Shown here one piece after another: positions 4,945 through 64,000 of a DNA stretch of 64,000 nt. The notes beneath the pieces are model-generated. The model was not told the DNA's origin. It did not search any database and saw nothing but the letters and a program-made list of their open reading frames with translations. The DNA is from an uncultured virus (IMG/VR IMGVR_UViG_3300030108_002488) (lineage: Duplodnaviria; Heunggongvirae; Uroviricota; Caudoviricetes). The stretch's first letter is position 1; each line of letters opens with the position of its first letter. The position numbers were made by a program, and so were the translations under genes. The stretch is taken from positions 1-64,000 of the IMG/VR virus record IMGVR_UViG_3300030108_002488; one strand, given 5' to 3'.

Positions 4945-5341
4945 CTATATCACTCACCATAATATTTTCAAATATACATCTTAGCGTTGATGCTACGTCT
5001 CTATAGAAATTGCTAACTCTAGGATTATTTAAAAATGCACGCTGCATATTATCAACCACTAAATCATATTCTTCTAGTAAACCGTGTAATAATTTAACAG
5101 CGGGTAAGAAATATTGAGGGTCATCATTATTGTATAAAGTATCGAAAGATTTTATCATAGCGGGAAACAAATCTATAGGTGTAACATTTATATCACCGTA
5201 GTGTTCGAACCTTTCTGTTAATTTAATACAATAATCAAGGAAAGTAGGAACATCTCTCTCAGTCATTATCCTACCTAAATTTACATAACGATAACCGGGA
5301 TGAGTTACTTGTAATAGGTCAGGAACTGGCACTGCTAACAT
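4937..5341 (-). CDS. Hypothetical protein
   Basis: 134 aa ORF translationally coupled on both sides. Confidence 0.55.
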   Translation of the reverse strand: MLAVPVPDLLQVTHPGYRYVNLGRIMTERDVPTFLDYCIKLTERFEHYGDINVTPIDLFPAMIKSFDTLYNNDDPQYFLPAVKLLHGLLEEYDLVVDNMQRAFLNNPRVSNFYRDVASTLRCIFENIMVSDIDD

Positions 5342-6021
5342 TACATATCACCCGCTTGGTCTATCAATTGGCTACGAATTCTTGCCCATGTATCAGGACT
5401 TTCTTTACCCAACTCAACTTTAAGAATGTTGATTGTGTTATGAATTTCACCATTTTCACTTGTTGCCCCCCAATTTTCTTGCATTTTAATTAAATCTTTT
5501 ATCGACTCTCTGACTTCTTTGTGCAAAGACACTGCATCTTTGACGAAGCCGTCTTCGTGTATACTCCCATCGTGGAGCAATTCAGACAACTTATCGTTGA
5601 GTTTTTCGACATTGTTTCGAAGTACATTTAATTCTCCTCCAACGGCGAGACTGGTCTCCGCTATAGCACTGCGTTGCACTAGGGGTTGAAAATGGTTTTT
5701 CATGTGATGGTAGACTGTAGTTTCAGCAAGGTCTAACTCTTTTGCTATATTTTCAGACTCACTACCGTCTTGAAAATACCTAGTTTCGAACTCTGCTCTT
5801 TGTGGGTGAGTACAAATTTTACATTGCGGATTAGCAGCCATGTGGTACTGACCCATATGATTTCTGAAGTGCCTGTCAGAAGTATTTAACCTCCAACCCA
5901 TTTCTTTATCTAATTCTTTAGGAGATATACTACCACTCAATAAAGCCTCTTCTAATTCATCTCTACTGGGATGTTGACAGAAAGGACAAGACCTTTTGGT
6001 AACTCTATTATCTTCTCCCAT
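5341..6021 (-). CDS. Tandem Zn-finger/HTH protein with coiled coil; candidate terminase small subunit
   Basis: Two repeats of CxxCxHPxR...HTH...HxxNH (CPFCQHPSR...RHFRNH; CKICTHPQR...HHMKNH), then a heptad region; lies upstream of terL on the same strand. Confidence 0.5.
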   Translation of the reverse strand: MGEDNRVTKRSCPFCQHPSRDELEEALLSGSISPKELDKEMGWRLNTSDRHFRNHMGQYHMAANPQCKICTHPQRAEFETRYFQDGSESENIAKELDLAETTVYHHMKNHFQPLVQRSAIAETSLAVGGELNVLRNNVEKLNDKLSELLHDGSIHEDGFVKDAVSLHKEVRESIKDLIKMQENWGATSENGEIHNTINILKVELGKESPDTWARIRSQLIDQAGDM

Positions 6022-6081: not shown

Positions 6082-6369
6082 ATGTTCCGTAGAATAAAGC
6101 GAGTTCCACGGCAAAATATATCTACCAAAATAAAAGAGGTTAAAAGAGCGACTAAAGATATAATCAACAAAAACAGAGTCACAGAAAATGAATACAAAGA
6201 TAGACTGAAAACATGTAATGATTGTGTCTATCTAGTGAGGTCCACAAATATGTGTAGAGTTTGTGGATGTTTTATGAAAATAAAAGCAGCCTTACCATCT
6301 TCTGTTTGTCCTCTTGGTAAATGGTCACTTAGCGATTCTAGTATAGATTCCACCCAACATGACAACTGA
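6082..6369 (+). CDS. Small Cys-rich metal-binding viral protein
   Basis: RLKTCNDC...CRVCGCFMKIKA...CPLGKW pattern, common in phage hypothetical proteins. Confidence 0.65.
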   Translation: MFRRIKRVPRQNISTKIKEVKRATKDIINKNRVTENEYKDRLKTCNDCVYLVRSTNMCRVCGCFMKIKAALPSSVCPLGKWSLSDSSIDSTQHDN

Positions 6370-6576
6370 TGCAAAAATTCCAATTAAGAATATACTTACT
6401 TCATTAGTGCTTAATTCAGCACCTTTGAAAACTAATATGAAAAATAAAGTAACTATTATACTCAAAAATTGTACCATAATCATGTCAGTAATTACTGACC
6501 TTTTTGGTGAAAACATATTCACACTTGCTACACTTAATCCACGAACTGCATTATTCATTGGGTCTTGGTTTATCAT
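6325..6576 (-). CDS. Small two-TM membrane protein
   Basis: Two hydrophobic segments (MIMVQFLSIIVTLFFILVF; VSIFLIGIFASVVMLGGIY). Confidence 0.65.
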   Translation of the reverse strand: MINQDPMNNAVRGLSVASVNMFSPKRSVITDMIMVQFLSIIVTLFFILVFKGAELSTNEVSIFLIGIFASVVMLGGIYTRIAK

Positions 6577-6586
6577 ATTATCACTT

Positions 6587-7261
6587 TTATTTATTTGTCG
6601 GTAGTCCTATTAATCCACGAGCAACGCTACCAATTCCACCACCCACTTTATTCATCATACCTTCATCGGCTAGAGCAGCGGATAAAGCACCACCCATCAT
6701 TGACTGTTGAGCCATACTCATGATTTGCTGTCTTTGCATTTCGGCTTGTTGAACTGTTTGTGTGCTTTGGGCCACAATATTGTTCAATAACATACTAACG
6801 TTTTCAGCACTTAATGTTTGTAGTTCTGATGGTAACGCTGTAGCGTCTAATTTCATAGCACCCTCATCTTCATTCATAACAAAAGTAGCGTTCTTTAATA
6901 TATTTATCAAACTTAAACTTGTGGCTGTTGCTACTAGGTCTATGACAGTGGCTAACCCTCCTTCTGCTATAAATCTATGAATTGGATTTTGTGATTGTAA
7001 TAAGGCAGCCATGATTTCCATTTCAGATGGAGGAGTTATCTGACCGTTCTGCATCATCATTTGTTGTTGTTGATTCATACCCATACCACCCATCATTCCA
7101 CCCATGAAACCATTAGGTTGTTGTTGAGGTGCAAACTGTGCCGATGGTAAACCAACCCCTAAATTAGAGCCGTATTGATTATTCATGGGAGCACCACTCA
7201 TTGAGAGGTTCAACGCTCCATTATTTTGTTGAGATTTATTAAAACCGAACATACCTATCAC
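6587..7261 (-). CDS. Gln/Met/Gly-rich helical hypothetical protein
   Basis: 224 aa with low-complexity QQQ/MGGM tracts and a Gly-zipper-like C-terminus. Confidence 0.6.
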   Translation of the reverse strand: MIGMFGFNKSQQNNGALNLSMSGAPMNNQYGSNLGVGLPSAQFAPQQQPNGFMGGMMGGMGMNQQQQMMMQNGQITPPSEMEIMAALLQSQNPIHRFIAEGGLATVIDLVATATSLSLINILKNATFVMNEDEGAMKLDATALPSELQTLSAENVSMLLNNIVAQSTQTVQQAEMQRQQIMSMAQQSMMGGALSAALADEGMMNKVGGGIGSVARGLIGLPTNK

Positions 7262-8208
7262 ACTCCCGGACGAAGGCCCTCCACATCAATGTTCTGCTGA
7301 TTGTGTTGTATTTTTAATGATTCTTGTGCGAGTAAATCTTCAAAAGCCTGAGTGGGCTGATTCATTTGCATAAGTTCTTGTTGAAATATACGTAAATCAA
7401 ACACTACCATGGTGACATCATTTTGACCAGTTACGGGATTAGAATAATGTAAAACATTAATTCCTTTTGTTTTACCAGCATCTCTTTCTAATTCAGCAAA
7501 AAATGGCTCATATTTTTTTAACATTTCAGGAGTAGGGTCTTTCTTTTTAAAAGATGCTACAGGTACTGTAACTATAGAAACTCCACGTTTCACTTTATCA
7601 CGAAGTCGGCTTGGATTCATTTCATTTTGTTTATCTTCTTCTGCCTCCCACTTACACAATAAATGATACAAATGAAGATGTTCAGGACAATATGTTCCTC
7701 TCATTTTTTTACCACTTGTGACTTTGTCACGAGCAATAAAAGCCTCAGGTTGACCAGTAACAGGGTTTTCCCAATACATTTCCCATAGAGAGCGACCAGT
7801 CTCCTCATCACTAATTCTCATGTAGAGATTATCGTGTTTTATAAGTTCAGCAACATTAGCACCATCGACAACACAAGTACCAGTATCTTTGTTGTAACGA
7901 TATTTTCTTCCAAATAACCATCGCATAGGGTTGAATATTGAACGTTTTGCTGGTTGTAAAAGTTTGTATGCTTGTTTAATATCTCTTCTACGTGCTTTTC
8001 TCGGGTCAGGATGTGTGCTTGGGTAAAAATTTACTTTGGGCACTTCTATATTTTGAGTTGCGGCTATTTCTTGCATTCCTTGTTGAGCAGCCATCATTTC
8101 TTGTAACGCAGCGTGAGTAAGTTGTTGATTACCTTGACCTGCTAAACTGGCTAAATGGGCCTCATTAACCGTATATAACGGCTGCGAGGCTGTAGGTTGA
8201 AACATCAT
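7258..8208 (-). CDS. Hypothetical protein
   Basis: 316 aa ORF, start/stop overlaps with both neighbours. Confidence 0.6.
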   Translation of the reverse strand: MMFQPTASQPLYTVNEAHLASLAGQGNQQLTHAALQEMMAAQQGMQEIAATQNIEVPKVNFYPSTHPDPRKARRRDIKQAYKLLQPAKRSIFNPMRWLFGRKYRYNKDTGTCVVDGANVAELIKHDNLYMRISDEETGRSLWEMYWENPVTGQPEAFIARDKVTSGKKMRGTYCPEHLHLYHLLCKWEAEEDKQNEMNPSRLRDKVKRGVSIVTVPVASFKKKDPTPEMLKKYEPFFAELERDAGKTKGINVLHYSNPVTGQNDVTMVVFDLRIFQQELMQMNQPTQAFEDLLAQESLKIQHNQQNIDVEGLRPGV

Positions 8209-8399
8209 TTATTTTCATCTCCTTGTACGGGTCTAAGCATTACTACCATATCACCGTTTTCCACTTTAAATTTCCAAGATACTTTATCCCCTGCATCTAA
8301 GTTATAGTGGTCTACAATCCACATTGGAATTGTAGTTCTAAGGCTACGACTACCTCCACCTGTAGATACTAAAACAGTGGATGTATTCTTTGTGCCCAT
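8205..8399 (-). CDS. AbrB/MazE/SpoVT-family DNA-binding protein
   Basis: SLRTTIPMWIVDHYNLDAGDKVSW matches the swapped-hairpin AbrB signature. Confidence 0.75.
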   Translation of the reverse strand: MGTKNTSTVLVSTGGGSRSLRTTIPMWIVDHYNLDAGDKVSWKFKVENGDMVVMLRPVQGDENK

Positions 8400-8445
8400 G
8401 TCTATCCCACGTATATTTTATTCAAAAGGTTATTGTTAAGGTCAA

Positions 8446-9168
8446 TCATGTGGTCAAGAGGTCTAACATGCATTGTTCTACATTCCATCCTATACGTGTA
8501 GCCATAAAAGAGCGTTTAGTAGGAATGCCCGCTTTTTGTAATTTAATAAGGTCATCCCTGAAAGGGTCGAAAATTTTATGCTCTCCTATTCTACCATCAT
8601 GCCATAATTTAGATGCAGTTTCATCAAAGAATCTATCTGCTTTATTAGCAATTAACATTACAACTCTAGGTCTGTATTTTCTTCCCTTTAACCTTGACCA
8701 CATAGAACGATAACGATAATTTCTATTTATGAGGCAATCAACTAGATAACGAAATCCAGCGAGTTGTTGAACACCAGCATCTCCTCCCTTGAAGGCCCTA
8801 TCATCAAATACGTAAACAACGGCTTCTACTCCTCTAGTCACCATATCTTCTATCCAAAGATTCCAAAATCTTTCCTGACCTCCTAAATCAGCAGAATATA
8901 CAACTCTTTTTTCTCCCCTCCAACTAACACGTTTTCTAGTGGGTTTAGGCATTTTATATTTACCTATTTTAAGAATACGAGAATGTGTGGTTCTATCTTC
9001 TTCGGGTATATCCTCCATTTCACCCGGTGTAGTCATATATCTATCAAGCGTTGTTTTACCAACCATGGGTGCTCCATAAACACCTACTCTACGGGGTTTG
9101 TAAGAATTAAATAAATGCTGTCCCCACATCGCTGCTCCAACAAGAGCAGTACTTGCTGGTTCTACCAT
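8446..9168 (-). CDS. Ras-superfamily (Arf-like) small GTPase
   Basis: G1 GAPMVGKTT, candidate G2 Thr (DRTT), G3 DLGGQ(ERF), strand AVVYVFD, G4 ANKAD, G5-like MAT. Confidence 0.85.
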   Translation of the reverse strand: MVEPASTALVGAAMWGQHLFNSYKPRRVGVYGAPMVGKTTLDRYMTTPGEMEDIPEEDRTTHSRILKIGKYKMPKPTRKRVSWRGEKRVVYSADLGGQERFWNLWIEDMVTRGVEAVVYVFDDRAFKGGDAGVQQLAGFRYLVDCLINRNYRYRSMWSRLKGRKYRPRVVMLIANKADRFFDETASKLWHDGRIGEHKIFDPFRDDLIKLQKAGIPTKRSFMATRIGWNVEQCMLDLLTT

Positions 9169-9171
9169 GTT

Positions 9172-9438
9172 CTAATTCCACCAAATTAACCAATTAATTA
9201 AACCCTCTAACTTTTCAATTACCCAGTTTACAGTATTTTCATAAAAACTAAATTCTTGATTATGAAATTCATAACCACTAATTACAAGTGCGGATATAAT
9301 TGAAAACACAATTGCTTTAAACCATCCCCAAGTTCTTTCATATGTAGTGTCTACGGTGTTGGCTAAATGTATGGCTCTAAGTGTCCCCTCTGTAGCATTA
9401 TCAGAAGGTGTTTTAAAAATACGTCCCACTAGTTTCAC
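9172..9438 (-). CDS. Small membrane protein
   Basis: Hydrophobic segment WFKAIVFSIISALVISGY; start uncertain. Confidence 0.6.
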   Translation of the reverse strand: MKLVGRIFKTPSDNATEGTLRAIHLANTVDTTYERTWGWFKAIVFSIISALVISGYEFHNQEFSFYENTVNWVIEKLEGLINWLIWWN

Positions 9439-9442
9439 TCCC

Positions 9443-10021
9443 TTATTTATCAGAGGGGGCGGTTTTTTTATTATATCTTTTATCTATAGTTCCATCTTTT
9501 TTTAACCTAACATTTTCTTCTACTTCTATGCCTAAAGACAAAGGCTGTCTAACACTAGCAGAATGAGATGGTAAATTAGGAGGCTCATCATAATATTGAG
9601 AAACTAACGATGGTGGCCCACCTTGTACTCCCCAAGAAGGAGGTATTTGACCGGGGTTTTGTTCCATCCATCTTAACTCTTGTTCTAATTGCGCTTCTCT
9701 CATTCTTAGTTCCATATCCGCTCTTCTTTTATCAAAATTTTCTTGCATGACTCTGTATTGATATTGACGATTTCTGTCTAAATTAGTTGTTCTGACTCTT
9801 TCTTGCATACCTTGCTCGAAAAACATTTTGAATACATAATATGCTATTCCTTGTACAAAAAATGCTGCCATGGCGTAAGTAAAACCATTTAACCAAGGTG
9901 TGTCGTTTATTAACCAAATATCAGCATCGAATACTCCAACGGCTACTCCGACTAGAGCACTTTGTGCTAATATCAATCCCATTAATCTTATTTCCGCATC
10001 ATGTTGTTCTTGACCATCCAT
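9443..10021 (-). CDS. Two-TM membrane protein with cytoplasmic coiled coil
   Basis: Two TM segments followed by RRADMELRMREAQLEQEL. Start moved from 10057 to the ATG at 10021 (MDGQEQ), downstream of an ATAACCTTT element. Confidence 0.6.
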   Translation of the reverse strand: MDGQEQHDAEIRLMGLILAQSALVGVAVGVFDADIWLINDTPWLNGFTYAMAAFFVQGIAYYVFKMFFEQGMQERVRTTNLDRNRQYQYRVMQENFDKRRADMELRMREAQLEQELRWMEQNPGQIPPSWGVQGGPPSLVSQYYDEPPNLPSHSASVRQPLSLGIEVEENVRLKKDGTIDKRYNKKTAPSDK

Positions 10022-10068
10022 TAGGACCACTGATGTGTCCACTAGAGAGGTCAACATAAAGGTTATGC

Positions 10069-10863
10069 TCAGTGAGGTATGTGTATATTTTTTAATTTAT
10101 TTATGTCAATATTAGTCTCTATACCACGTTTATGTGCCCAATCTACTAGATTTTCAGTGGATAAGTTACCTTTAGTATTAGGCATAAAAGGGCAACCTCC
10201 TAATCCGTGAATACTAGAGTCAAATTCTCTGACTCCTTTTTCATAGGCTATCTCGACTTTATCCAATAAATTTTCACCATGTAAATGCAAACTAATATTA
10301 TAATCTTTAACCAAATCTAAAATTTTGGCTAAGGTATTGATGTCAGCAGAACCTATTGTGTCACAAAGAACAATAGTGTCTCCTAATCGACTAGCCTGTT
10401 CTACAGCATTAATCACCATATCATCGCTCGGTACACCTAAATAAGGACAACCGAATATAGTAGAGATGTAAACTCTGACATTTTCTTTTGGAGTATCTTT
10501 TAGCATTTCTTTGAACTCTTCTATTATCTCTTCCATGTTTTTACCAAGGTTTCTTTGGTTAAACTCATTAGAGCAAGAGAAAAATATATTAACCTTCTTT
10601 ATACCAAGTTCTTTTGCTTTTTCAAAACCGTGTTTATTGGGTATTAAAACAGAGAATTCACAAGATAGTTCATTTAATTGTTGATACACTTTATCTGAAT
10701 CAGCCATGTTGGGTACTCTTTTAGGATGAACAAAAGCACCAAACTCTATGTGATTTATTCCAGCATCGTTTAATTGCCTAATTAAATCAACTCTTTCTTT
10801 TACTGATAGTTTGATAGAGTGACCCTGTAATCCATCTCTAGGCCCGACTTCGTGTATCAGCAT
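10069..10863 (-). CDS. hmgL: Hydroxymethylglutaryl-CoA lyase (DRE-TIM metallolyase)
   Basis: EVGPRDGLQ, FVHPKRVPNMAD, FGCPY, DTIG, LHLH, DSSIHGLGGCPF, GNLSTE motifs. Confidence 0.9.
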   Translation of the reverse strand: MLIHEVGPRDGLQGHSIKLSVKERVDLIRQLNDAGINHIEFGAFVHPKRVPNMADSDKVYQQLNELSCEFSVLIPNKHGFEKAKELGIKKVNIFFSCSNEFNQRNLGKNMEEIIEEFKEMLKDTPKENVRVYISTIFGCPYLGVPSDDMVINAVEQASRLGDTIVLCDTIGSADINTLAKILDLVKDYNISLHLHGENLLDKVEIAYEKGVREFDSSIHGLGGCPFMPNTKGNLSTENLVDWAHKRGIETNIDINKLKNIHIPH

Positions 10864-10992
10864 AGACAAGGAGGAAGGGAGTGAGAATATAAAATTTATA
10901 TTGTTAAGTTAATTAATTGTATAGTTTTAATTATTTATATTATTATACAAAATAGTATATTGTACATACTATTATACTTACAATCTTTACAA

Positions 10993-12750
10993 CTATATGA
11001 AAAATTCATGAGCGATATATGGCTCTTCTTCTTCTTCATCTTCTTCTTTTATCTTTCTCTCTAGCGCATTGGCTATTTTTTCATCTTGTTCATCCATAGG
11101 ACCACTTAGTAAATTTTGAAGTAATTCAATGTCTTCTTTCATCCCTTTTGCTATCCGTCTAAGTGTTCCTCTATCTTTGAAATGCCTCGCTCTGTTTTCA
11201 TGTTCAGATTCAACTGTTAATTTACCACCTTCAGTGTGGCTAATATCTTTACCTGAGTGGTCTCCATACATTCCCCTTCTTCTTCTTTCTCGATTCAACT
11301 CTTCTCTATACTTTACTCTTTCAGGGGTTGACTCGTATTTTTTATCATATTCTAGTTTATGTCTTTTAGCCTCAGGGGAAACTCTTTCTTTCAACAAACT
11401 AAACCAAGCCTTACTCATAGCATCTCCCTTTTCTAGTGTTTCATCCTCTTCTGCATTATAAACCCAAGCCCCACTCTCATCTTTCGACCACCCTGTTTTT
11501 TCACCCAATTTAGACCTTCTTCTAGCGTCTTTTATCGCTCTGTATTCTGCAAGACTTTTACTCTGTCTTTCTAATCTTATCTTATGTCTTCTTTCTCTTT
11601 CAGCAAGCATTTCATCACGTTTTCTTCGCCTTTCTTCGTGAGGAACATCGACTTCGTGTTTTTCTCTTAACTCTGCATGTCTTTTACGAGCCTTTTCAGA
11701 ATGACCAATACCTTGTTCTGCTAGGTAATCATCAATCTCAATACCATAATTATTCAACCAATCAATAAATCTTTGTGATGGTCTATTAGATAAAGGGGTA
11801 TCAGGGTGTCTTCTATTGTATTCGACTGACCTCGGCACATCAAAATTTTTGTTATATCTACCTGTTTCAGGGTTTTTCCCTGCATGCATTAAATCATCTC
11901 TTTTTCCAGCCTCATTAAGACGACTCATATGTCGAGGGTGTAAACCTAAAGCCCATTGTCTATTCATTTCTTGTTTGTAAGGGTGATTATTATACCACTC
12001 ATTGTGGGCTTTCCACTCAGGGCTACTAGGACCAGCGAGACTATAATTACTAGCAGTATTATATTGATTTGTGAAAAAATTTCTCATATAGTATCTTTCG
12101 GCATTTACAGCAGAATTAGCGTCTGTTATGGGATTTCTAGCACCTCCACGAAATAAACTTTCACGACTATCGTATTTTTCTGTTACACCTTCAGGTGTAA
12201 CATAAGTAATATCTTTAGGAGGCGGGTTTAAAAGTGCTTGAGCCAATTCAGGAGTGTCTTCACCATACATATCGTATTTCATTATAGAATTTTTAAGCAA
12301 CTGCGTAGCGATGTCCATTGGTTCACTTTTATTCGTCAATATACCTATTGCCTTTTGATAACGCCTTGCTAAACTTTCATTCGGGTTGTTCTTTAAATTA
12401 GAATGTAAATCGGCCAATTTAACTTGTGTTGCTTCAGGATGCTCCTTTACTCTGTTAATGTAATCAAAGTATTGTTCACCTTGTCTTCTTGTGAGAGCAT
12501 CAACTGCATGACCCACATCTTCTCCGAAACGCTCATGAATTTCTCCAATACCCGTTTCTGAATCTTCTACTGTATCATGAAGATACGCAATACGTTGAAG
12601 ATGAGGGTCATCAAATCCACTTGCTACATCTTCCACATGAGTCATGTAAGGTTGTTCACCATACATCTGTCCTTCATGAATTTGAGTTGCGTAGTCCTTT
12701 GCTTCTTGGGGCATCTTCAGCAACCGCATAGCGATGTCCATTGGTTTCAT
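10993..12750 (-). CDS. Modular protein: SpoT/Mesh1-like HD hydrolase domain, unknown (possibly ART-like) domain, HNH-like domain
   Basis: HD domain HEGQMYGEQPYMTH...YLHDTVED...VKLADLHSN; middle LFRG...FFT...ASNYS; C-terminal GKDISH...ENRAR. ATG at 12750 overlaps the upstream stop. Confidence 0.7.
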   Translation of the reverse strand: MKPMDIAMRLLKMPQEAKDYATQIHEGQMYGEQPYMTHVEDVASGFDDPHLQRIAYLHDTVEDSETGIGEIHERFGEDVGHAVDALTRRQGEQYFDYINRVKEHPEATQVKLADLHSNLKNNPNESLARRYQKAIGILTNKSEPMDIATQLLKNSIMKYDMYGEDTPELAQALLNPPPKDITYVTPEGVTEKYDSRESLFRGGARNPITDANSAVNAERYYMRNFFTNQYNTASNYSLAGPSSPEWKAHNEWYNNHPYKQEMNRQWALGLHPRHMSRLNEAGKRDDLMHAGKNPETGRYNKNFDVPRSVEYNRRHPDTPLSNRPSQRFIDWLNNYGIEIDDYLAEQGIGHSEKARKRHAELREKHEVDVPHEERRRKRDEMLAERERRHKIRLERQSKSLAEYRAIKDARRRSKLGEKTGWSKDESGAWVYNAEEDETLEKGDAMSKAWFSLLKERVSPEAKRHKLEYDKKYESTPERVKYREELNRERRRRGMYGDHSGKDISHTEGGKLTVESEHENRARHFKDRGTLRRIAKGMKEDIELLQNLLSGPMDEQDEKIANALERKIKEEDEEEEEPYIAHEFFI

Positions 12751-12968
12751 TCTTTCCCCGCCCATGCATCACATACGTGGTCAGCACGACAAATAAAATC
12801 GTACCACTCACAATATCCTGTCATAGGGTCGTCAGTTTTTGACGAATCCCATGCTTTACAATTACCACATTTTTTCCGTCCAGTGGCTTTTCTATAGTTA
12901 GGAGCATCTTCTTTACCCTTTAGTAAAGCCCAAGCCTTAACTATAGATGCGTGACTCAACAATTCCAC
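12747..12968 (-). CDS. Small 4-Cys HiPIP-like protein with N-terminal tag
   Basis: APNYR...KCGNCKAW...GYC...VCDAW; preceded by KAWALLK. Confidence 0.5.
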   Translation of the reverse strand: MELLSHASIVKAWALLKGKEDAPNYRKATGRKKCGNCKAWDSSKTDDPMTGYCEWYDFICRADHVCDAWAGKE

Positions 12969-58926: not shown

Positions 58927-60362
58927 TATTCGTCACCTCCGTATATGGCGGCTAGTGATTTACTACCCTTGATGGTTTCGGACGATGATGAGCCACCAAT
59001 TAATCCTCTACCACCTGATTTACCAATAATAAACCCATCACCAGCCACACCATGATTATATTTAATTACGAACAATTTACTTACTAATTTAATATCACCG
59101 AATAAAGATGTGCTGTCTTCTACCACTTGTTGTATTACATCAGGCTTACCTTCTGTAACCGATATGCCTTGTACTAATCCTTGTAGTATACCCTCCACAC
59201 CTGTGTCTACTTGTAAGAATACTAAATTTGTAGAATTATTAGATAGATTATGTGATACTTCTGTTAGTATTCTAGGTAAACCTTCGTAAGTAATAATTTG
59301 ACCGGGTCTTAAATCCCAAGCATTAGGATGACCATCGCTATACATACTACCCTCTAATATATTATTAGCCTTTAATATAGTTCTAGCAATTCTTCTAGCG
59401 GCATCGTTAGATTTAACACTCGCATCAGTGATAACAGATGGTTCTTCTTGTATGTCACCACCCCTACCGCTTTGTCTTTCACCATCACTCATTATAACAT
59501 AAGATACATTGTTCAAAGCAATTGGTACACCTTGAACTGCGATTTTATTAGGGGTGTTAGCGATAGGATTTATACCCTTACCACCAGTTCTGACAGCGGA
59601 ATCTATCATTCTACCCGCCTCTGTGAAATTAAAAGGAACATAAAGTAAATTACCAAATCTATCGAAGTAAGCAATACAATTATCATACCTACCTAAGAAT
59701 TTAAAAGCAGTTAAAAGATTGATATCGTGGAAATCATGTGATACAAATTTTGTAGAAAACTTTCTTCTTTCAGTATTTGCGTTTGTAGGATTACGAGATA
59801 AACCTAAGTTAACAGAAGTAAACTCATCGGCAACATCTTTTGCTAATCTCATAGCCAAATCAGATGTTCTAAGGCCGACATTAACAGGTTGTGCAAAATG
59901 ACCACTAGTACCGATAAAACCAATCTCTTCTATGGTTTTACCTTTTAAATTTTTAAGAGTCATGATTGTACCATCCGTAGATGTTTGTATATCACTTAAA
60001 AATAATCTTTGTGAAGGCGCTACACTATTGTAAATTAAAGGTGGTTTATCTTTTGCGCTACTACTAGACAATTGTGAACTCATATAGAACACGGGGCTAG
60101 TAGAATCATGACCATCAACATCGGGCTCTAATATTTTAACACTATCTTGTCTACCTTGTATTTGATATGCTTTTCCTGTCGCTATTGCGTATGTAGATGT
60201 TTTTCTTTGTCGTATGGTCAATTTATGTTTGTCACTATTTTGTGGATTTATTTCTGCTAAATGAACAGCGTTATCAACAAACTTAGGTTTTCTCACATGT
60301 GTCATAATTTGTGCATCTCTACTAGTGTTACCTAGTATGTATGAAGTGCTTATCAATGGCAT
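58926..60362 (-). CDS. Probable tail hub/baseplate protein
   Basis: YFDRFGNLLY, DLRPGQII, EVSH patterns resembling hub proteins; context. Confidence 0.5.
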   Translation of the reverse strand: MPLISTSYILGNTSRDAQIMTHVRKPKFVDNAVHLAEINPQNSDKHKLTIRQRKTSTYAIATGKAYQIQGRQDSVKILEPDVDGHDSTSPVFYMSSQLSSSSAKDKPPLIYNSVAPSQRLFLSDIQTSTDGTIMTLKNLKGKTIEEIGFIGTSGHFAQPVNVGLRTSDLAMRLAKDVADEFTSVNLGLSRNPTNANTERRKFSTKFVSHDFHDINLLTAFKFLGRYDNCIAYFDRFGNLLYVPFNFTEAGRMIDSAVRTGGKGINPIANTPNKIAVQGVPIALNNVSYVIMSDGERQSGRGGDIQEEPSVITDASVKSNDAARRIARTILKANNILEGSMYSDGHPNAWDLRPGQIITYEGLPRILTEVSHNLSNNSTNLVFLQVDTGVEGILQGLVQGISVTEGKPDVIQQVVEDSTSLFGDIKLVSKLFVIKYNHGVAGDGFIIGKSGGRGLIGGSSSSETIKGSKSLAAIYGGDE

Positions 60363-63300
60363 TATGCATCACCCGAGTGGTCTGAAGTATTGAAAGTTAC
60401 ATCTTCTTTATGTCCTTTAGAATGTAATGATTGTGTAAAGCGTGCTTTGACATTATAATCCTTCTCACTACCATCGCTTCTTGACGAGTCTCCTCTGAAT
60501 TTTTGTAGTGTATTTTCACTAATTACTAATCTAGTCACTGTACCTTTAAGACTTGTTTTATCAAAACCAGTAGCCTCTGTACCCGGTAGTTTTGGTCCCT
60601 TAGAAGCGGGAGATTGTACACTAGATGATGTTTTAACATAGTACACTGGTTGATAAGGAGCATTTGATGCAGGTAAATCACTTCCCGAAAAATTAGTAGA
60701 AGTAGCACTAGGTGTTGAATAATTAAACAATCCGTATTTACCACCTGATGTCGCTGAAAAATAATTACTATCGGATTGAGGACTGCTTGAATGTAACGCT
60801 AAATTAGACCTAAAGACTTCAACGTGTTTATTATCTAACAATCTAGTTGGTCTTAGTAAAAATTGTATACTTTTATCTGTGTAATTATATCTACTAATAA
60901 CAGTTCCTGAATTATATACCTGATATGGATTACTAGTCTTTTCACTAGCAGATGCCCAACTTGAAAGACCCCACCCTGTATCGTCAAATGGGTTAGCAAA
61001 ACTGCTCGATTCTAATATGTAATTACCACCTAAAGCGTGTATATTACTTGTATGGCTAAATCTCATCACACCACCTTGAGGTTGACCTGCGAATGTCAAC
61101 GCTGTTAAATCGTAGTCACCCAGTGTTTGTGAGGCTGCTTGCATACCACCGTGTAATATTACTCTCTGTCCTATGTTACGGTCTGTGTGTAAACTATGCG
61201 CCTCTGTATTTACTACAATCATATCAGAGGAACTACCTCCGCTAAAAGATTCTAAGTTTTCAGCATCAATACCTATACGTGGGCTGCTTCTTGATATTGC
61301 TTCTTTATGTACAGATGTACCAGTGAAAGACTCTACCTTCTCACTAGCAACAGCATCAGGTTTTAGTAAACCATCTTCTTCTATATCTAATCTAGCACTT
61401 ATACCTCTTTTAATTTCATCACTTGCTAAAACATCATTACGTGGTCTGATGTAACCTGTACCGAATGTTGGCTCTGAAGTATGATGAGATAACACTATTC
61501 CCGAACCTTGATACACGGTGCTAATATCCGCTAAGACATCTTCGTTAAATTCTGTTGGATATCTAACACCACGGCCCCCACCCATATCTCCAACACGTAG
61601 AGCATTAGTAGGGGCAAAAACATCTACAAGTTCGTTAGAATTATTAGAATTAATATCATTTAATCTACCACCGAATCTAGGAATAGTGTTAGTTCTTGAA
61701 CTCAGGATATTACCACTAGTATCTGCTATACCTTTTAGATTAAAGATAGGTTTACCATTATTCCAAATTCTAGCATGCGGCGTTCTATTGTTAGTCCTGT
61801 CATACTCGTAAGCATCACCAGCATCCCAAGCAGGTCTAATTCCAAATCCACGTACAGGCATTCTTCTTACATCCTCGCCACGAGTATTACCCCACCAATC
61901 GATTAGATAGTAACCTAGTGCGTTTTCAAATGATGATATACCAAGCGCCTCGCCATCTCCCCACCAATCACGAGGTACACCTATACCACCTGTGAAATTG
62001 GCTTCTGATACAGTCGCCAAGTTTTCTGTTATATCGGTGTTACCAGCAGGTCCTGCTACTGCTTGAGTCAAAGTGACTACTCCGTTTGTTACTGTACCGA
62101 CTGTGATTTTACCGTTATGACCATTAGCGTGTTCTATCGCTGCTTTGAGTAACACAACGAATTGATGTTGTGTAGTTCCACCACTTAAGTCAAACCCAAC
62201 TGCTATTCCTGTAGCGTTAGTACTTAGAGTTGCTGTAATTGAACCTGTAGATTTCAATGTGGCACCCGCCGCTACAGCACCTAAATGGGCCACACCTCCG
62301 TCATTAGTATCTGATACGAAATAATCTACTACTGTTCCGTCCGTACTTGTAAGAGTAATTTTCTGACCAGCGGTCAAACCATGTGCAGAACCATGAGCAG
62401 CAGCAGTGAGTGTAGCAGTAGCCTGTGTAGAATTAGCATTTCTGATAGTTCTAACTGGGCAACCATATGAACGAGTCATTCTTCTACCATCACTGTATCT
62501 TGTTTGGAATTCAGGTTTATCCATGCCTAACATACCAGTAAAGTTAGTTTGTCTTTCCATAACTCCAACATAAGTAACAGGTAATGTAGCAGACCCTATA
62601 GATGAGTCATTTCCAACATAAGTTAAACCGCCAAATGGATACTCCACTAACGGACCTTGTCTATTTTCAACTGTAAGAGGAACTGCGCTTCCTGATGCCA
62701 ATGTATCTTCCATCCACGCTCTTAATCCATAGAATCCCCATTGTGGTCTATTCCATGGTTGTCTTAAACCGAATCTATAACCGAAAGTTTGTGGTCTATA
62801 TCCACCGACAGTTTCACCTGATGCTGCGGGAGGACTTGCGTTTGGATTGAATGTAGATGCTAATCCCAAACTTACACTATAACTACCATCATCATCCTTA
62901 TCTAACCAATAAACAGATGTTCCTGCTGGATAATAACCAGCCATATTCCAACCTGCGGCAGCCATAGCATATCCGTCTAGGTTACTATTTAGCGGCCCAC
63001 CTCTACTACCACAAGGCCAATAATTAGATAGCATTATAGTTGTGCTTCCTTGAGATTGAATACCATTTAGGGCATGGATTTCTGCTCCTGTACCTACACT
63101 ACCATCTGCTCCAACATATATTGTACTACCAGTAGCGGGTTCGAATCCTTTACCCGTGTCTGCTATTGTTACATTTGCTGTAGCGACAGCCAAAACTTTA
63201 CCTATTATTTTACCATCTGCGAATAAGAAATCATTAACGCTTACTTCGCTACTTACATCACCAGCAAAAGTAAAAATTCTTTTTAATCCGTTAACTTTGA

Positions 63301-64000
63301 CTGTACCACTTGAACCACCTGCTATGGTTAATGTATCTCCGTAAGAATAGTTTTGTCCTGCGTTATTAATCGCAACAGCGGTAATAACATTAGAACCACT
63401 TACTGTCAAATCAAAAGTAGCACTAGAACCTGTGCCACCAGCACCAGCCTGTGTGGTAGCACTATATCCACTTCCACCTGCGGTGAGAATTACATTATTT
63501 ATTGTCCCACTAGTTCCGTAACTTGACAATGTTTCAGAAATGGGCACAGGTGGTTTTGGTGTCTTGATATCCATGTTGAAAGGACCGTGACTGATAGAAG
63601 AATTAACACCGTGATAATGTATTGTTTCAAAATGCTCAGGAATAGAATTGTACGCTGCTTCATCAACCGCTCTATCTGCATGTAAGTTACTACCGTTGAT
63701 AGGGAATGTTCTACTTGAGTCTGAATAGAAAGTGTAAGGTCTTCCTAAGTTAGGACTCCAAGCGCAGATAAAAGCATCAGGTGTATGCAAACTGTTTGTG
63801 TCACGAGTACCAGCCAATAATTGAGGTAGATTTCTTGTCAAAACACTTCGCTTAGGTTCTGTAAATAACTCTGTGGTACTAGCATTACTATACGGTCTAG
63901 TTAGTCTAACAACTGTACCAGCCTCAGGTAATGAGCCCGATGCAGCACTAACTATGAATTTATGACTTGTTGTTGAATTAGCATTAGTAACCGCTCCTCT
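60362..64000 (-). CDS. Very large virion structural protein (C-terminal part; 5' end outside the window)
   Basis: The frame of the 60362..63841 ORF has no stop up to base 64000, so the listed TTG start is not the real start. Confidence 0.75.
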   Translation of the reverse strand, partial: RGAVTNANSTTSHKFIVSAASGSLPEAGTVVRLTRPYSNASTTELFTEPKRSVLTRNLPQLLAGTRDTNSLHTPDAFICAWSPNLGRPYTFYSDSSRTFPINGSNLHADRAVDEAAYNSIPEHFETIHYHGVNSSISHGPFNMDIKTPKPPVPISETLSSYGTSGTINNVILTAGGSGYSATTQAGAGGTGSSATFDLTVSGSNVITAVAINNAGQNYSYGDTLTIAGGSSGTVKVNGLKRIFTFAGDVSSEVSVNDFLFADGKIIGKVLAVATANVTIADTGKGFEPATGSTIYVGADGSVGTGAEIHALNGIQSQGSTTIMLSNYWPCGSRGGPLNSNLDGYAMAAAGWNMAGYYPAGTSVYWLDKDDDGSYSVSLGLASTFNPNASPPAASGETVGGYRPQTFGYRFGLRQPWNRPQWGFYGLRAWMEDTLASGSAVPLTVENRQGPLVEYPFGGLTYVGNDSSIGSATLPVTYVGVMERQTNFTGMLGMDKPEFQTRYSDGRRMTRSYGCPVRTIRNANSTQATATLTAAAHGSAHGLTAGQKITLTSTDGTVVDYFVSDTNDGGVAHLGAVAAGATLKSTGSITATLSTNATGIAVGFDLSGGTTQHQFVVLLKAAIEHANGHNGKITVGTVTNGVVTLTQAVAGPAGNTDITENLATVSEANFTGGIGVPRDWWGDGEALGISSFENALGYYLIDWWGNTRGEDVRRMPVRGFGIRPAWDAGDAYEYDRTNNRTPHARIWNNGKPIFNLKGIADTSGNILSSRTNTIPRFGGRLNDINSNNSNELVDVFAPTNALRVGDMGGGRGVRYPTEFNEDVLADISTVYQGSGIVLSHHTSEPTFGTGYIRPRNDVLASDEIKRGISARLDIEEDGLLKPDAVASEKVESFTGTSVHKEAISRSSPRIGIDAENLESFSGGSSSDMIVVNTEAHSLHTDRNIGQRVILHGGMQAASQTLGDYDLTALTFAGQPQGGVMRFSHTSNIHALGGNYILESSSFANPFDDTGWGLSSWASASEKTSNPYQVYNSGTVISRYNYTDKSIQFLLRPTRLLDNKHVEVFRSNLALHSSSPQSDSNYFSATSGGKYGLFNYSTPSATSTNFSGSDLPASNAPYQPVYYVKTSSSVQSPASKGPKLPGTEATGFDKTSLKGTVTRLVISENTLQKFRGDSSRSDGSEKDYNVKARFTQSLHSKGHKEDVTFNTSDHSGDA

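Follow-up and report, generated by a model that had tools for sequence, protein, structure and literature searches.

A divergent Arf-like small GTPase encoded in a conserved membrane-protein cassette of an uncultured tailed virus

The subject of this study is a stretch of 64,000 nt, hereafter the window, comprising positions 1 to 64,000 of the uncultured virus record IMGVR_UViG_3300030108_002488 (IMG/VR; Caudoviricetes). Inspection of its minus strand revealed a cassette of seven co-oriented genes in which a divergent small GTPase is encoded among small membrane proteins. An original prediction, made from the sequence alone, had pointed to these seven open reading frames (ORFs), and all of them are present, co-oriented as it had described, with the GTPase gene tightly packed among the membrane-protein genes. 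From its first gene to its last the cassette is composed as follows (TM, transmembrane segment; positions within proteins are residue numbers).

9443..10057, minus strand: 204-aa membrane protein, first cassette gene (ORF list, hydropathy)
9172..9438, minus strand: 88-aa single-TM protein, TM at 37–55, with an aromatic, acidic C-terminal tail
8446..9168, minus strand: 240-aa divergent Arf-family-like small GTPase (motifs, profiles, fold)
8205..8399, minus strand: 64-aa small DNA-binding protein of the AbrB/SpoVT/MazE type (Pfam PF04014, MazE_antitoxin, 25.5 bits, cut-off 24.7)
7258..8208, minus strand: 316-aa orphan Cys/His protein (alignment of relatives)
6587..7261, minus strand: 224-aa Met/Gln/Gly-rich protein, whose N-terminal half is of low complexity and whose C-terminal half is helical and conserved
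6325..6576, minus strand: 83-aa 2-TM protein, last cassette gene, TMs at 32–50 and 60–78, short basic ends, followed by a 303-nt gap

The gaps between successive genes are 4, 3, 46, -4, -4 and 10 nt, and the stop codon of the 88-aa gene lies 3 nt ahead of the GTPase start. By this spacing the cassette appears to be a tightly packed operon.

Hydropathy assigns one TM to the 88-aa protein and two to the 83-aa protein, as had been predicted. The 204-aa protein, which the prediction had also given two TMs, has one clear TM (25–43) and a weaker second segment (62–80, score 1.45), followed by a charged helical stretch, highly charged at residues ~85–135, and a disordered tail. Two clear TMs are found by hydropathy in its homologue from a more distant lineage (P0126-type, described below).

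The 316-aa protein carries a conserved signature of C112, C174, H177, H179 and H182. A further cysteine, C117, is present in at least 90% of the relatives. It is replaced by Ala in the window copy, which also lacks a neighbouring Cys found in many relatives, so that the putative metal site of this copy may differ. The protein has no match in Pfam, its profile finds nothing in the PDB, the ESM Atlas gave no usable match, and its predicted model (pLDDT 64) has no fold match, the best hits (Z 5.3) being generic helical bundles. The predicted Gln/Met/Gly richness of the 224-aa protein is borne out by family means of 8.4% Met (96.5th percentile of the ORFs of the loci) and 12.4% Gln. The bias is kept in its analogues, with Met at 8.4%, 6.7% and 12.2% in three lineages. 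This protein has no relative in the PDB or Pfam. A role as a membrane tether like SepF or ArvB was considered and is not supported: its short N-terminal hydrophobic motif is poorly conserved and no PDB or Pfam relative points to such a role.

The small GTPase and its relatives

The GTPase motifs quoted in the original prediction, G1 (GAPMVGKTT, 9049–9075), G3 (DLGGQ(ERF), 8875–8889) and G4 (NKAD, 8635–8646), are real, invariant down to 23% identity and well beyond what chance would give. Conservation was followed in an alignment of close relatives that are at least 71% identical (A1), and in the same alignment extended by distant full-length members, down to 23% identity (A2). A2 is invariant at G32, G37, K38, D94, G97, D122, N175 and K176, and at least 90% of its sequences keep D178. 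The P-loop pattern GxxxxGK[ST] is found in all 81 sequences of the window type and in all 80 of a distant type (P0146-type). G5 (8497–8511) reads MAT in the window lineage and has the canonical form SAx in distant members. The probable G2 residue is Thr60, within 8983–9000; T60 is invariant in A1, and its placement as G2 is inferred. The map is completed by an N-terminal helix (9100–9159), a conserved basic insert in the interswitch (8923–8955) and a switch II region with a conserved Trp (8854–8874). The G3 glutamine varies: 68 of the 81 window-type sequences and 42 of the 80 of the P0146-type have Q there, the others E, D or H.

An N-terminal helix of the Arf kind had been part of the original prediction. 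A helix is indeed predicted at residues 4–23 in the AlphaFold model, an extension of ~25 aa is present in nearly all relatives, and the segment is hydrophobic. Its amphipathic character, however, is weak and the helix is uncharged: the hydrophobic moment is 0.32 for the best 14-residue window, compared with a protein-wide mean of 0.28 for 18-residue windows. The moment is 0.32–0.43 in close relatives and reaches 0.59 in distant ones. In one distant relative (P0199) the N-terminal hydrophobic stretch is long enough for a TM anchor.

The assignment to Arf- or Ras-like GTPases stood in part. Single-sequence searches gave weak matches (Pfam Roc, E=0.02; NCBIfam small_GTP, E=0.012; both below cut-off; best phmmer hit in the PDB, E=0.015), and the window protein lies below every Pfam GTPase cut-off, Arf (PF00025) and Ras included, with no Arf match at E up to 0.1. 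The A1 profile found no match in the PDB. The best match of the A2 profile, in an alignment that runs from the N-terminal helix on, was GerdArfR1 (8OUN, E=3.9e-8), an Asgard Arf-related protein (ArfR; bioRxiv 10.1101/2024.02.28.582541). It was followed by Arl8A/B (2.5e-5), 8OUM, Rab33B (3.4e-4), and Arf3p, Arl3 and Arl1 (the last three below 1e-3), while SR-beta was matched at E=0.0024. The most distant family member, P0203, is the sole one that passes the Pfam Arf model (36.5 bits), and hhalign joins it to A1 with a probability of 97.3% over 182 columns. Furthermore, searches of the ESM Atlas returned viral clusters first and then bacterial clusters in which 17–67% of the members carry Pfam Arf, and some JGI records bear the automatic name "GTPase SAR1 family protein".

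The AlphaFold (AF2) model (pLDDT 68.7, pTM 0.71) has the strand and helix order of a G domain, in a six-stranded alpha/beta fold. Foldseek matched it to Rab, Ras, Rho, Arl2 and G-alpha at E ~1e-6. A structure search independent of Foldseek (VIA), in which rows within 1 Z count as tied, gave an Asgard RagA-like protein (Z 14.2), Arl2 (13.6), Arf6 (13.1), Arf1 (12.9), Arl8 and G-alpha-i (12.8), and Sar1, Arl13B and SR-beta (12.6), with matches over 155–174 residues. Profiles and model thus describe a real but very divergent small GTPase, most similar to the Arf type, that fails strict Arf membership at the Pfam cut-off.

The viral protein resembles Arf, Arl, Sar1 and Asgard ArfR proteins in its G-domain fold, its G motifs and the helix before strand 1, and its switch-II Trp aligns with that of Arl8 and GerdArfR1. 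It differs from them in the conserved basic interswitch insert, the weakly amphipathic uncharged helix and the variable G3 Gln, and at 240 aa, with three insertions, it is longer than the compared Arf-family chains in the PDB (169–193 aa). The N-terminal helix of Arf proteins is reported to be pushed out of place by the interswitch hairpin once GTP is bound (bioRxiv 10.1101/2024.02.28.582541). By analogy, the basic insert would be placed to face the membrane.

We also considered that the protein might be a pseudo-GTPase, that is, a structural subunit that binds nucleotide and does not switch. The inconstant G3 Gln, the scores below all Pfam GTPase cut-offs and a distant relative without the G4 Asp (P0162) fit this idea. 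It is nonetheless very improbable, given that G1, G3 and G4 are invariant or nearly so family-wide and that the Gln replacements are all polar (E, D, H) in two abundant lineages. Judged by its motifs and predicted fold, the protein is very probably a functional guanine-nucleotide switch of the Arf type.

The family comprises 471 proteins at 90% clustering. Among 1.84 billion representatives it forms 83 clusters at 50% identity (E up to 0.001), and these include no ordinary cellular GTPase. Close copies were found in three of ~185,579 species genomes, on 8–16 kb contigs (L165, L166, L167) in bins from unrelated taxa, labelled Parvibaculum, Maricaulis and Promethearchaeati (Asgard). These three copies are likely mis-binned virus, that is, contamination of public genomes. 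No relatives were found in 50,697 deposited phage and archaeal-virus records. A recent, isolated capture from a host, the counter-case raised in the original prediction, was rejected, as the 83 clusters hold no cellular GTPase and the close copies sit only on contigs that look mis-binned. Within these viruses the GTPase gene is an old inheritance.

Conservation of the cassette between lineages

The original prediction had proposed synteny as a check, and we mapped neighbours of the GTPase gene by tblastn in the best 80 of 189 IMG/VR loci, whose GTPases are at least 67% identical to that of the window (close loci). The 88-aa, 316-aa, Met/Gln-rich and 83-aa genes are present in all 80, the 204-aa gene in 77 and the AbrB gene in 70. 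The gene for the downstream helix-turn-helix (HTH) protein is found in 80 and that for an upstream HD-domain protein in 73. All lie on one strand at fixed offsets, and the misses are upper bounds because contig ends cut some of the loci. In all 80 the distance from the 88-aa TM gene to the GTPase gene lies between -28 and +12 nt.

Shared gene order in such closely related loci is weak evidence by itself, and more distant lineages were therefore examined. In P0126-type loci (GTPase 39% identical, n=13) the core order is unchanged: the 2-TM gene was found in 12, the 1-TM gene in 11, the GTPase, 316-like and Met/Gln-rich genes in 13 each, the terminal 2-TM gene in 12 and the HTH gene in 12. The order is kept in part in P0127-type loci (40% identical, n=4), all four of which have the 2-TM protein, the GTPase and a 316-like protein; in the one that was mapped (L084), a Met/Gln-rich protein follows at the next position.

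A third lineage, P0146-type, was represented by the best 80 of 140 loci, with a GTPase 34% identical to that of the window. Its neighbours could not be detected by hidden Markov models (0/80), and the synteny is one of positional analogues: a 2-TM protein (77/80), a 73-aa TM protein (79/80), the GTPase, a 226-aa protein (80/80) and a 237-aa Met/Gln-rich protein (75/80). Profile comparison by hhalign gave 69% (E=4.5e-5) for the 316-aa against the 226-aa protein and 52% (E=1.5e-4) for the 224-aa against the 237-aa protein, with cross-controls of 10.7% and 0.5%, which lends modest support to homology of both pairs. For the upstream TM proteins "conserved" refers to position and topology only, because no homology between lineages was detected. 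No loci on viral contigs were found for the distant members P0130, P0199 and P0159.

The AbrB gene, which the original prediction had counted as part of the operon, passes its Pfam model and is common among close loci (70/80). It is no part of the conserved core, being found in 0 of 13 P0126-type and 0 of 84 P0127- and P0146-type loci, and is a later, lineage-specific insert. The lineage comparison leaves a core of six genes, in the order 2-TM, 1-TM, GTPase, Cys/His, Met/Gln-rich and 2-TM. Synteny with the membrane genes, whose absence would have counted against the original prediction, is deeply conserved.

All cassette genes are under purifying selection, which is strong in the GTPase. Median ratios of nonsynonymous to synonymous substitution rates (dN/dS) are ~0.10 for the GTPase (103 usable among 600 sampled pairs) and ~0.10 for the 316-aa protein, 0.18–0.36 across the membrane and Met/Gln-rich proteins (204-aa ~0.18, 83-aa ~0.36) and ~0.44 for AbrB, the weakest constraint, all of which are rough values because synonymous sites are near saturation. 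By these comparisons the GTPase and the Cys/His protein seem to be the most constrained members of the core, with the 316-aa protein as the most conserved partner of the GTPase.

Stop-codon readthrough between the 88-aa TM gene and the GTPase gene, or a TM–GTPase fusion, was also considered. This was rejected, as only 38 of 80 and 57 of 79 loci have the two genes in one frame; a search for longer, fused forms was negative as well, which is weak evidence. A single 303-aa record (P0038), on one 1.6-kb contig, reads as an in-frame fusion of an 88-aa-type TM protein and the GTPase. It may reflect an error of sequencing or an uncommon natural fusion, and the arrangement is not systematic.

Genomic setting and possible roles

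On its plus strand the window encodes a family-B DNA polymerase (PolB), an RFC-like AAA clamp loader, a thermosome subunit, an SNF2 helicase and a PD-(D/E)XK nuclease; a primase-like protein and a tail-fibre-like giant protein are also encoded. The G+C content is ~37%, with a skew that switches with the strand, and no tRNA genes were found in the 64 kb. Group A magroviruses are described as having a thermosome and SNF2, an archaeal-type replisome and terminally redundant genomes of ~100 kb (PMC5434244), and the gene set of the window appears to be that described for this group. The label magrovirus is used here without a confirming named record: the best named matches of PolB are haloarchaeal tailed viruses at ~23% identity.

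The source record (G000) is a 74.8-kb fragment, rated 70% complete, that ends inside a giant ORF, and capsid-gene positions were taken instead from complete relatives of 101.7–107.2 kb (G001–G003), which have major capsid protein (MCP), portal, protease and the large terminase subunit (TerL). In G001 the co-directional order is an HD-like protein, two small genes, the cassette, the HTH protein, a 133-aa protein, three large orphans, TerL (Terminase_6C), HMGL, an HNH protein, portal, four genes, prohead protease and MCP. P0146-type viruses have the order DNA ligase, protease, MCP, three small genes, the cassette and large unannotated proteins. The cassette is always co-directional with the head genes (terminase, portal, protease, capsid), and in G001 and P0146-type viruses it is part of the gene block for head building and DNA packaging. 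This position argues for late expression of the cassette. Its first gene is preceded by an AT-rich non-coding stretch of at least 40 nt in 71 of the 75 loci that have an upstream ORF; in the window itself an HMGL insert occupies the site of that stretch.

We judge it rather probable that the GTPase and its cassette partners work jointly at the host membrane. More tentatively, and as a plausible reading rather than a probable one, we propose that the cassette is a virus-encoded, late-expressed membrane switch that times permeabilisation of the membrane and egress. The GTP form of the GTPase would attach to the host cytoplasmic membrane through its hydrophobic N-terminal helix and basic interswitch insert, with assistance from the small membrane proteins whose synthesis immediately precedes its own. 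Its nucleotide state would be set or read out by the Cys/His protein. The membrane would then change in a timed way as infection ends; in the likeliest case the holin-sized proteins would permeabilise it and so release the virions. In its most specific form, an egress machine in which the Arf-type switch sets the moment when holin-like proteins assemble into a lethal lesion and so serves as a lysis clock, the proposal is possible but doubtful.

In support of a role in egress, the cassette holds three holin-sized TM proteins, and no other lysis gene is seen among the 56 window proteins that were scanned. The original prediction had recognised no holin or endolysin, and its observation holds for that set: neither Pfam nor PHROG identified a lysis-type family, some small ORFs lying outside the scan. 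Holin cassettes of tailed phages likewise consist of small 1–2 TM proteins among late genes; the viral cassette, unlike holin–endolysin cassettes, has no match to a holin or endolysin family in Pfam or PHROG. To our knowledge, no lysis cassette contains a small GTPase. How archaeal tailed viruses leave their hosts is called completely uncharacterised (PMC10791045), and PMC11706807 reports no egress system for Magrovirales.

Several observations weigh against egress. The N-terminal helix is hydrophobic but only modestly amphipathic, with a net charge of 0. The G3 Gln is replaced in 13 of 81 and 38 of 80 sequences of the two main types, and the mechanism of hydrolysis may differ accordingly. Searches of Pfam, PHROGs, NCBIfam and PADLOC and with PDB profiles found no family of holins, lysins, GTPase-activating proteins (GAPs), guanine-nucleotide exchange factors (GEFs), coats or membrane-remodelling proteins in the partners, and the model of the 316-aa partner matched no fold. 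Between lineages the upstream TM proteins score only 0.2–0.3% in hhalign. Since no deposited relative was found, an egress system of this kind would not be general to archaeal tailed viruses. Furthermore, the position in the late block fits assembly as well as lysis.

The last point on position brings in a morphogenesis factor: the GTPase and its partners would serve not in release but as organisers or chaperones while heads or tails are assembled, perhaps at a site bound to the membrane. The P0146-type cassette directly follows the protease, MCP and three small genes and precedes large unannotated proteins, the G001 cassette opens a block that runs to TerL, portal, protease and MCP, and the low-complexity Met/Gln-rich protein could be scaffold-like. 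Three of the six core products are, on the other hand, small membrane proteins, and none of the cassette proteins has a PHROG "head", "tail" or "connector" match. We also know of no requirement for membrane proteins or a small GTPase in tailed-virus assembly, and we regard this explanation as rather unlikely.

The same gene position bears on superinfection exclusion, defence or counter-defence at the membrane. Small viral membrane proteins often serve exclusion, and the upstream TM proteins turn over fast between lineages, as such a role would have it. The cassette lies in the late structural block, however, and not among early genes, and the GTPase and the 316-aa protein are among the most constrained genes of the region, unlike typical arms-race genes. 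PADLOC gave no match for the seven window cassette proteins (7/7) or the five of the P0146-type (5/5), and a known defence system was rejected on this result. We consider exclusion or defence distinctly improbable.

The nearest functional precedent for a GTPase acting at the membrane is ArvABC. Haloferax volcanii needs the small GTPase ArvA (OapA), which has an N-terminal amphipathic helix, to form extracellular vesicles, and the operon of ArvA also encodes ArvB (DUF2073) and the Zn-ribbon protein ArvC (DUF2072), a proposed GAP (PMC10927574). ArvABC shares with the viral cassette an archaeal-world GTPase with an N-terminal helix, followed by partner genes of which one is of a zinc type. The viral cassette has dedicated TM proteins; the description of ArvABC mentions none. 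Derivation from ArvABC was rejected. OapB (PF09846) and OapC (PF09845) are absent from the source record, the control genomes being positive (2 for OapB), and the comparison of A1 with one representative ArvA-type GTPase (L184:840-1454, not that of H. volcanii) gave 17.9% over 36 columns, limited to the P-loop. In the PDB this representative is related to Der, TrmE, EngA and FeoB, not to Arf. It is encoded in an Asgard-labelled bin (L184; G005:C93:20517-23813) next to an OapB ORF (1459–1809; 76.5 bits, over cut-off). The same bin, G005, also holds a mis-binned magrovirus contig.

ArvA-like vesiculation or remodelling without lysis, serving receptor shedding, export or non-lytic release, was accordingly weighed as a function of the viral genes. 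The pairing of a GTPase with a Cys/His protein recalls the ArvA operon, in which the GTPase is needed for vesicles and a Zn-ribbon protein is the proposed GAP (PMC10927574). The ArvA genome list in the supplement of that paper, as far as available, has 51 Thermoplasmatota rows and no Poseidoniales row, so the virus could supply a function that its presumed host lacks. The viral GTPase and its partners are, however, not homologous to ArvABC, tailed particles have no envelope, and magrovirus reads fall mainly in the free-virus fraction (PMC5434244), which gives no pointer to budding. We hold vesiculation to be unlikely.

Still less likely, though only slightly so, is a role in targeting or inserting membrane proteins in the manner of SR-beta, with the Met-rich protein shielding hydrophobic helices and delivering TM or virion proteins. 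Met-rich grooves bind TM helices, Met enrichment is kept in the three lineages, and the hydrophobic stretch of P0199 could span a membrane. SR-beta, the Arf-like GTPase of the eukaryotic SRP receptor, whose G domain is held at the membrane beside a TM segment, is among the tied structural matches (Z 12.1–12.6) and among the profile matches (E=0.0024). This match is no better than those of many other G domains, and the Met-rich protein has no solved-structure or Pfam relative. In the magrovirus cassette the TM segment is a separate protein, the isolated 303-aa fused form (P0038) aside.

The viral GTPase was also compared with other known GTPase systems. No Sec7-, ArfGAP- or coat-like partner was found in the viral cassette, unlike in Arf systems. 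The mimivirus Rab (5XC5; structural match 5xc5_A, Z 11.2) is likewise a Ras-superfamily GTPase encoded by a virus; giant-virus GTPases are recognisable Rab homologues in viruses of eukaryotes, whereas the magrovirus GTPase is a separate family in an archaeal virus.

We found no published account of the cassette or of a magrovirus GTPase; the supplements of other papers, outside our search, may list automatic annotations. GTPase does not occur as a term in the main texts of PMC5434244, PMC10160649 and PMC11706807 or in two supplements of PMC5434244. Magroviruses have been described as ranking with the most abundant viruses in surface ocean waters (PMC5434244). The cassette offers a compact, deeply conserved gene set, testable heterologously, as a candidate for the exit or membrane action of these viruses. 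It would extend Arf-type membrane switches, a eukaryotic and Asgard hallmark, to a virus of Thermoplasmatota-type archaea, and the separateness of the family from cellular GTPases bears on the spread and diversification of these switches. If true, a small GTPase that acts as a lysis clock would be a principle not known from any phage or virus.

Neighbouring genes

Two genes on the same strand adjoin the cassette and are not counted as part of it.

5341..6021, minus strand: 226-aa HTH protein with Cys pairs, downstream neighbour (HTH_20, GerE just under cut-off)
10069..10869, minus strand: HMGL-like metabolic gene (PF00682, E=7.6e-30), 11 nt upstream of the cassette

The HTH protein opens the gene run toward the terminase, and its orthologue in G001 passes HTH_20. 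The HMGL-like gene, of the HMG-CoA lyase type, does not keep its place among related viruses. It is found 11 nt upstream of the cassette here and between terminase and portal in G001 (L170:896-1861, plus strand), and in the 23 of 80 close loci that have it, it never adjoins the cassette. HMGCL has been reported among the auxiliary genes of magroviruses (PMC10160649). The HD-domain protein found further upstream in 73 of 80 close loci has 590 aa in the window (10993–12765, minus strand); its N-terminal domain is an HD-type phosphohydrolase by phrog_990 (E=3.3e-35), with Pfam HD_4 staying below cut-off, and its tail is long and charged. On the opposite strand, a 95-aa Cys-rich DUF6171 protein (6082–6369, plus strand; E=4.9e-11, phrog_13558) overlaps the 3' end of the 83-aa gene by 45 nt; its gene is present in 54 of 80 related loci, on the opposite strand every time.

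An ATP-dependent DNA-ligase domain was detected in the structural block of relatives. It is weak in G001, inside a 1,825-aa protein (L170:6606-12083, plus strand), and clear in a P0146-type virus, in a 606-aa protein before the protease (L163:27-1847, plus strand), in agreement with the ligase described as embedded in the magrovirus structural module (PMC5434244).

The giant ORF at the end of the source record runs from the window (60362–64000, minus strand) into the remaining sequence (L168; G000:C1:64001-74771). It encodes at least ~4,800 aa, 1,212 aa in the window and 3,590 aa beyond, and is open at the contig end; neither Pfam nor PHROG matches the part in the window. The ORF is upstream of genes for proteins of 478 aa, 114 aa and 1,391 aa, the last of them tail-fibre-like, and probably encodes a giant tail or adhesin protein.

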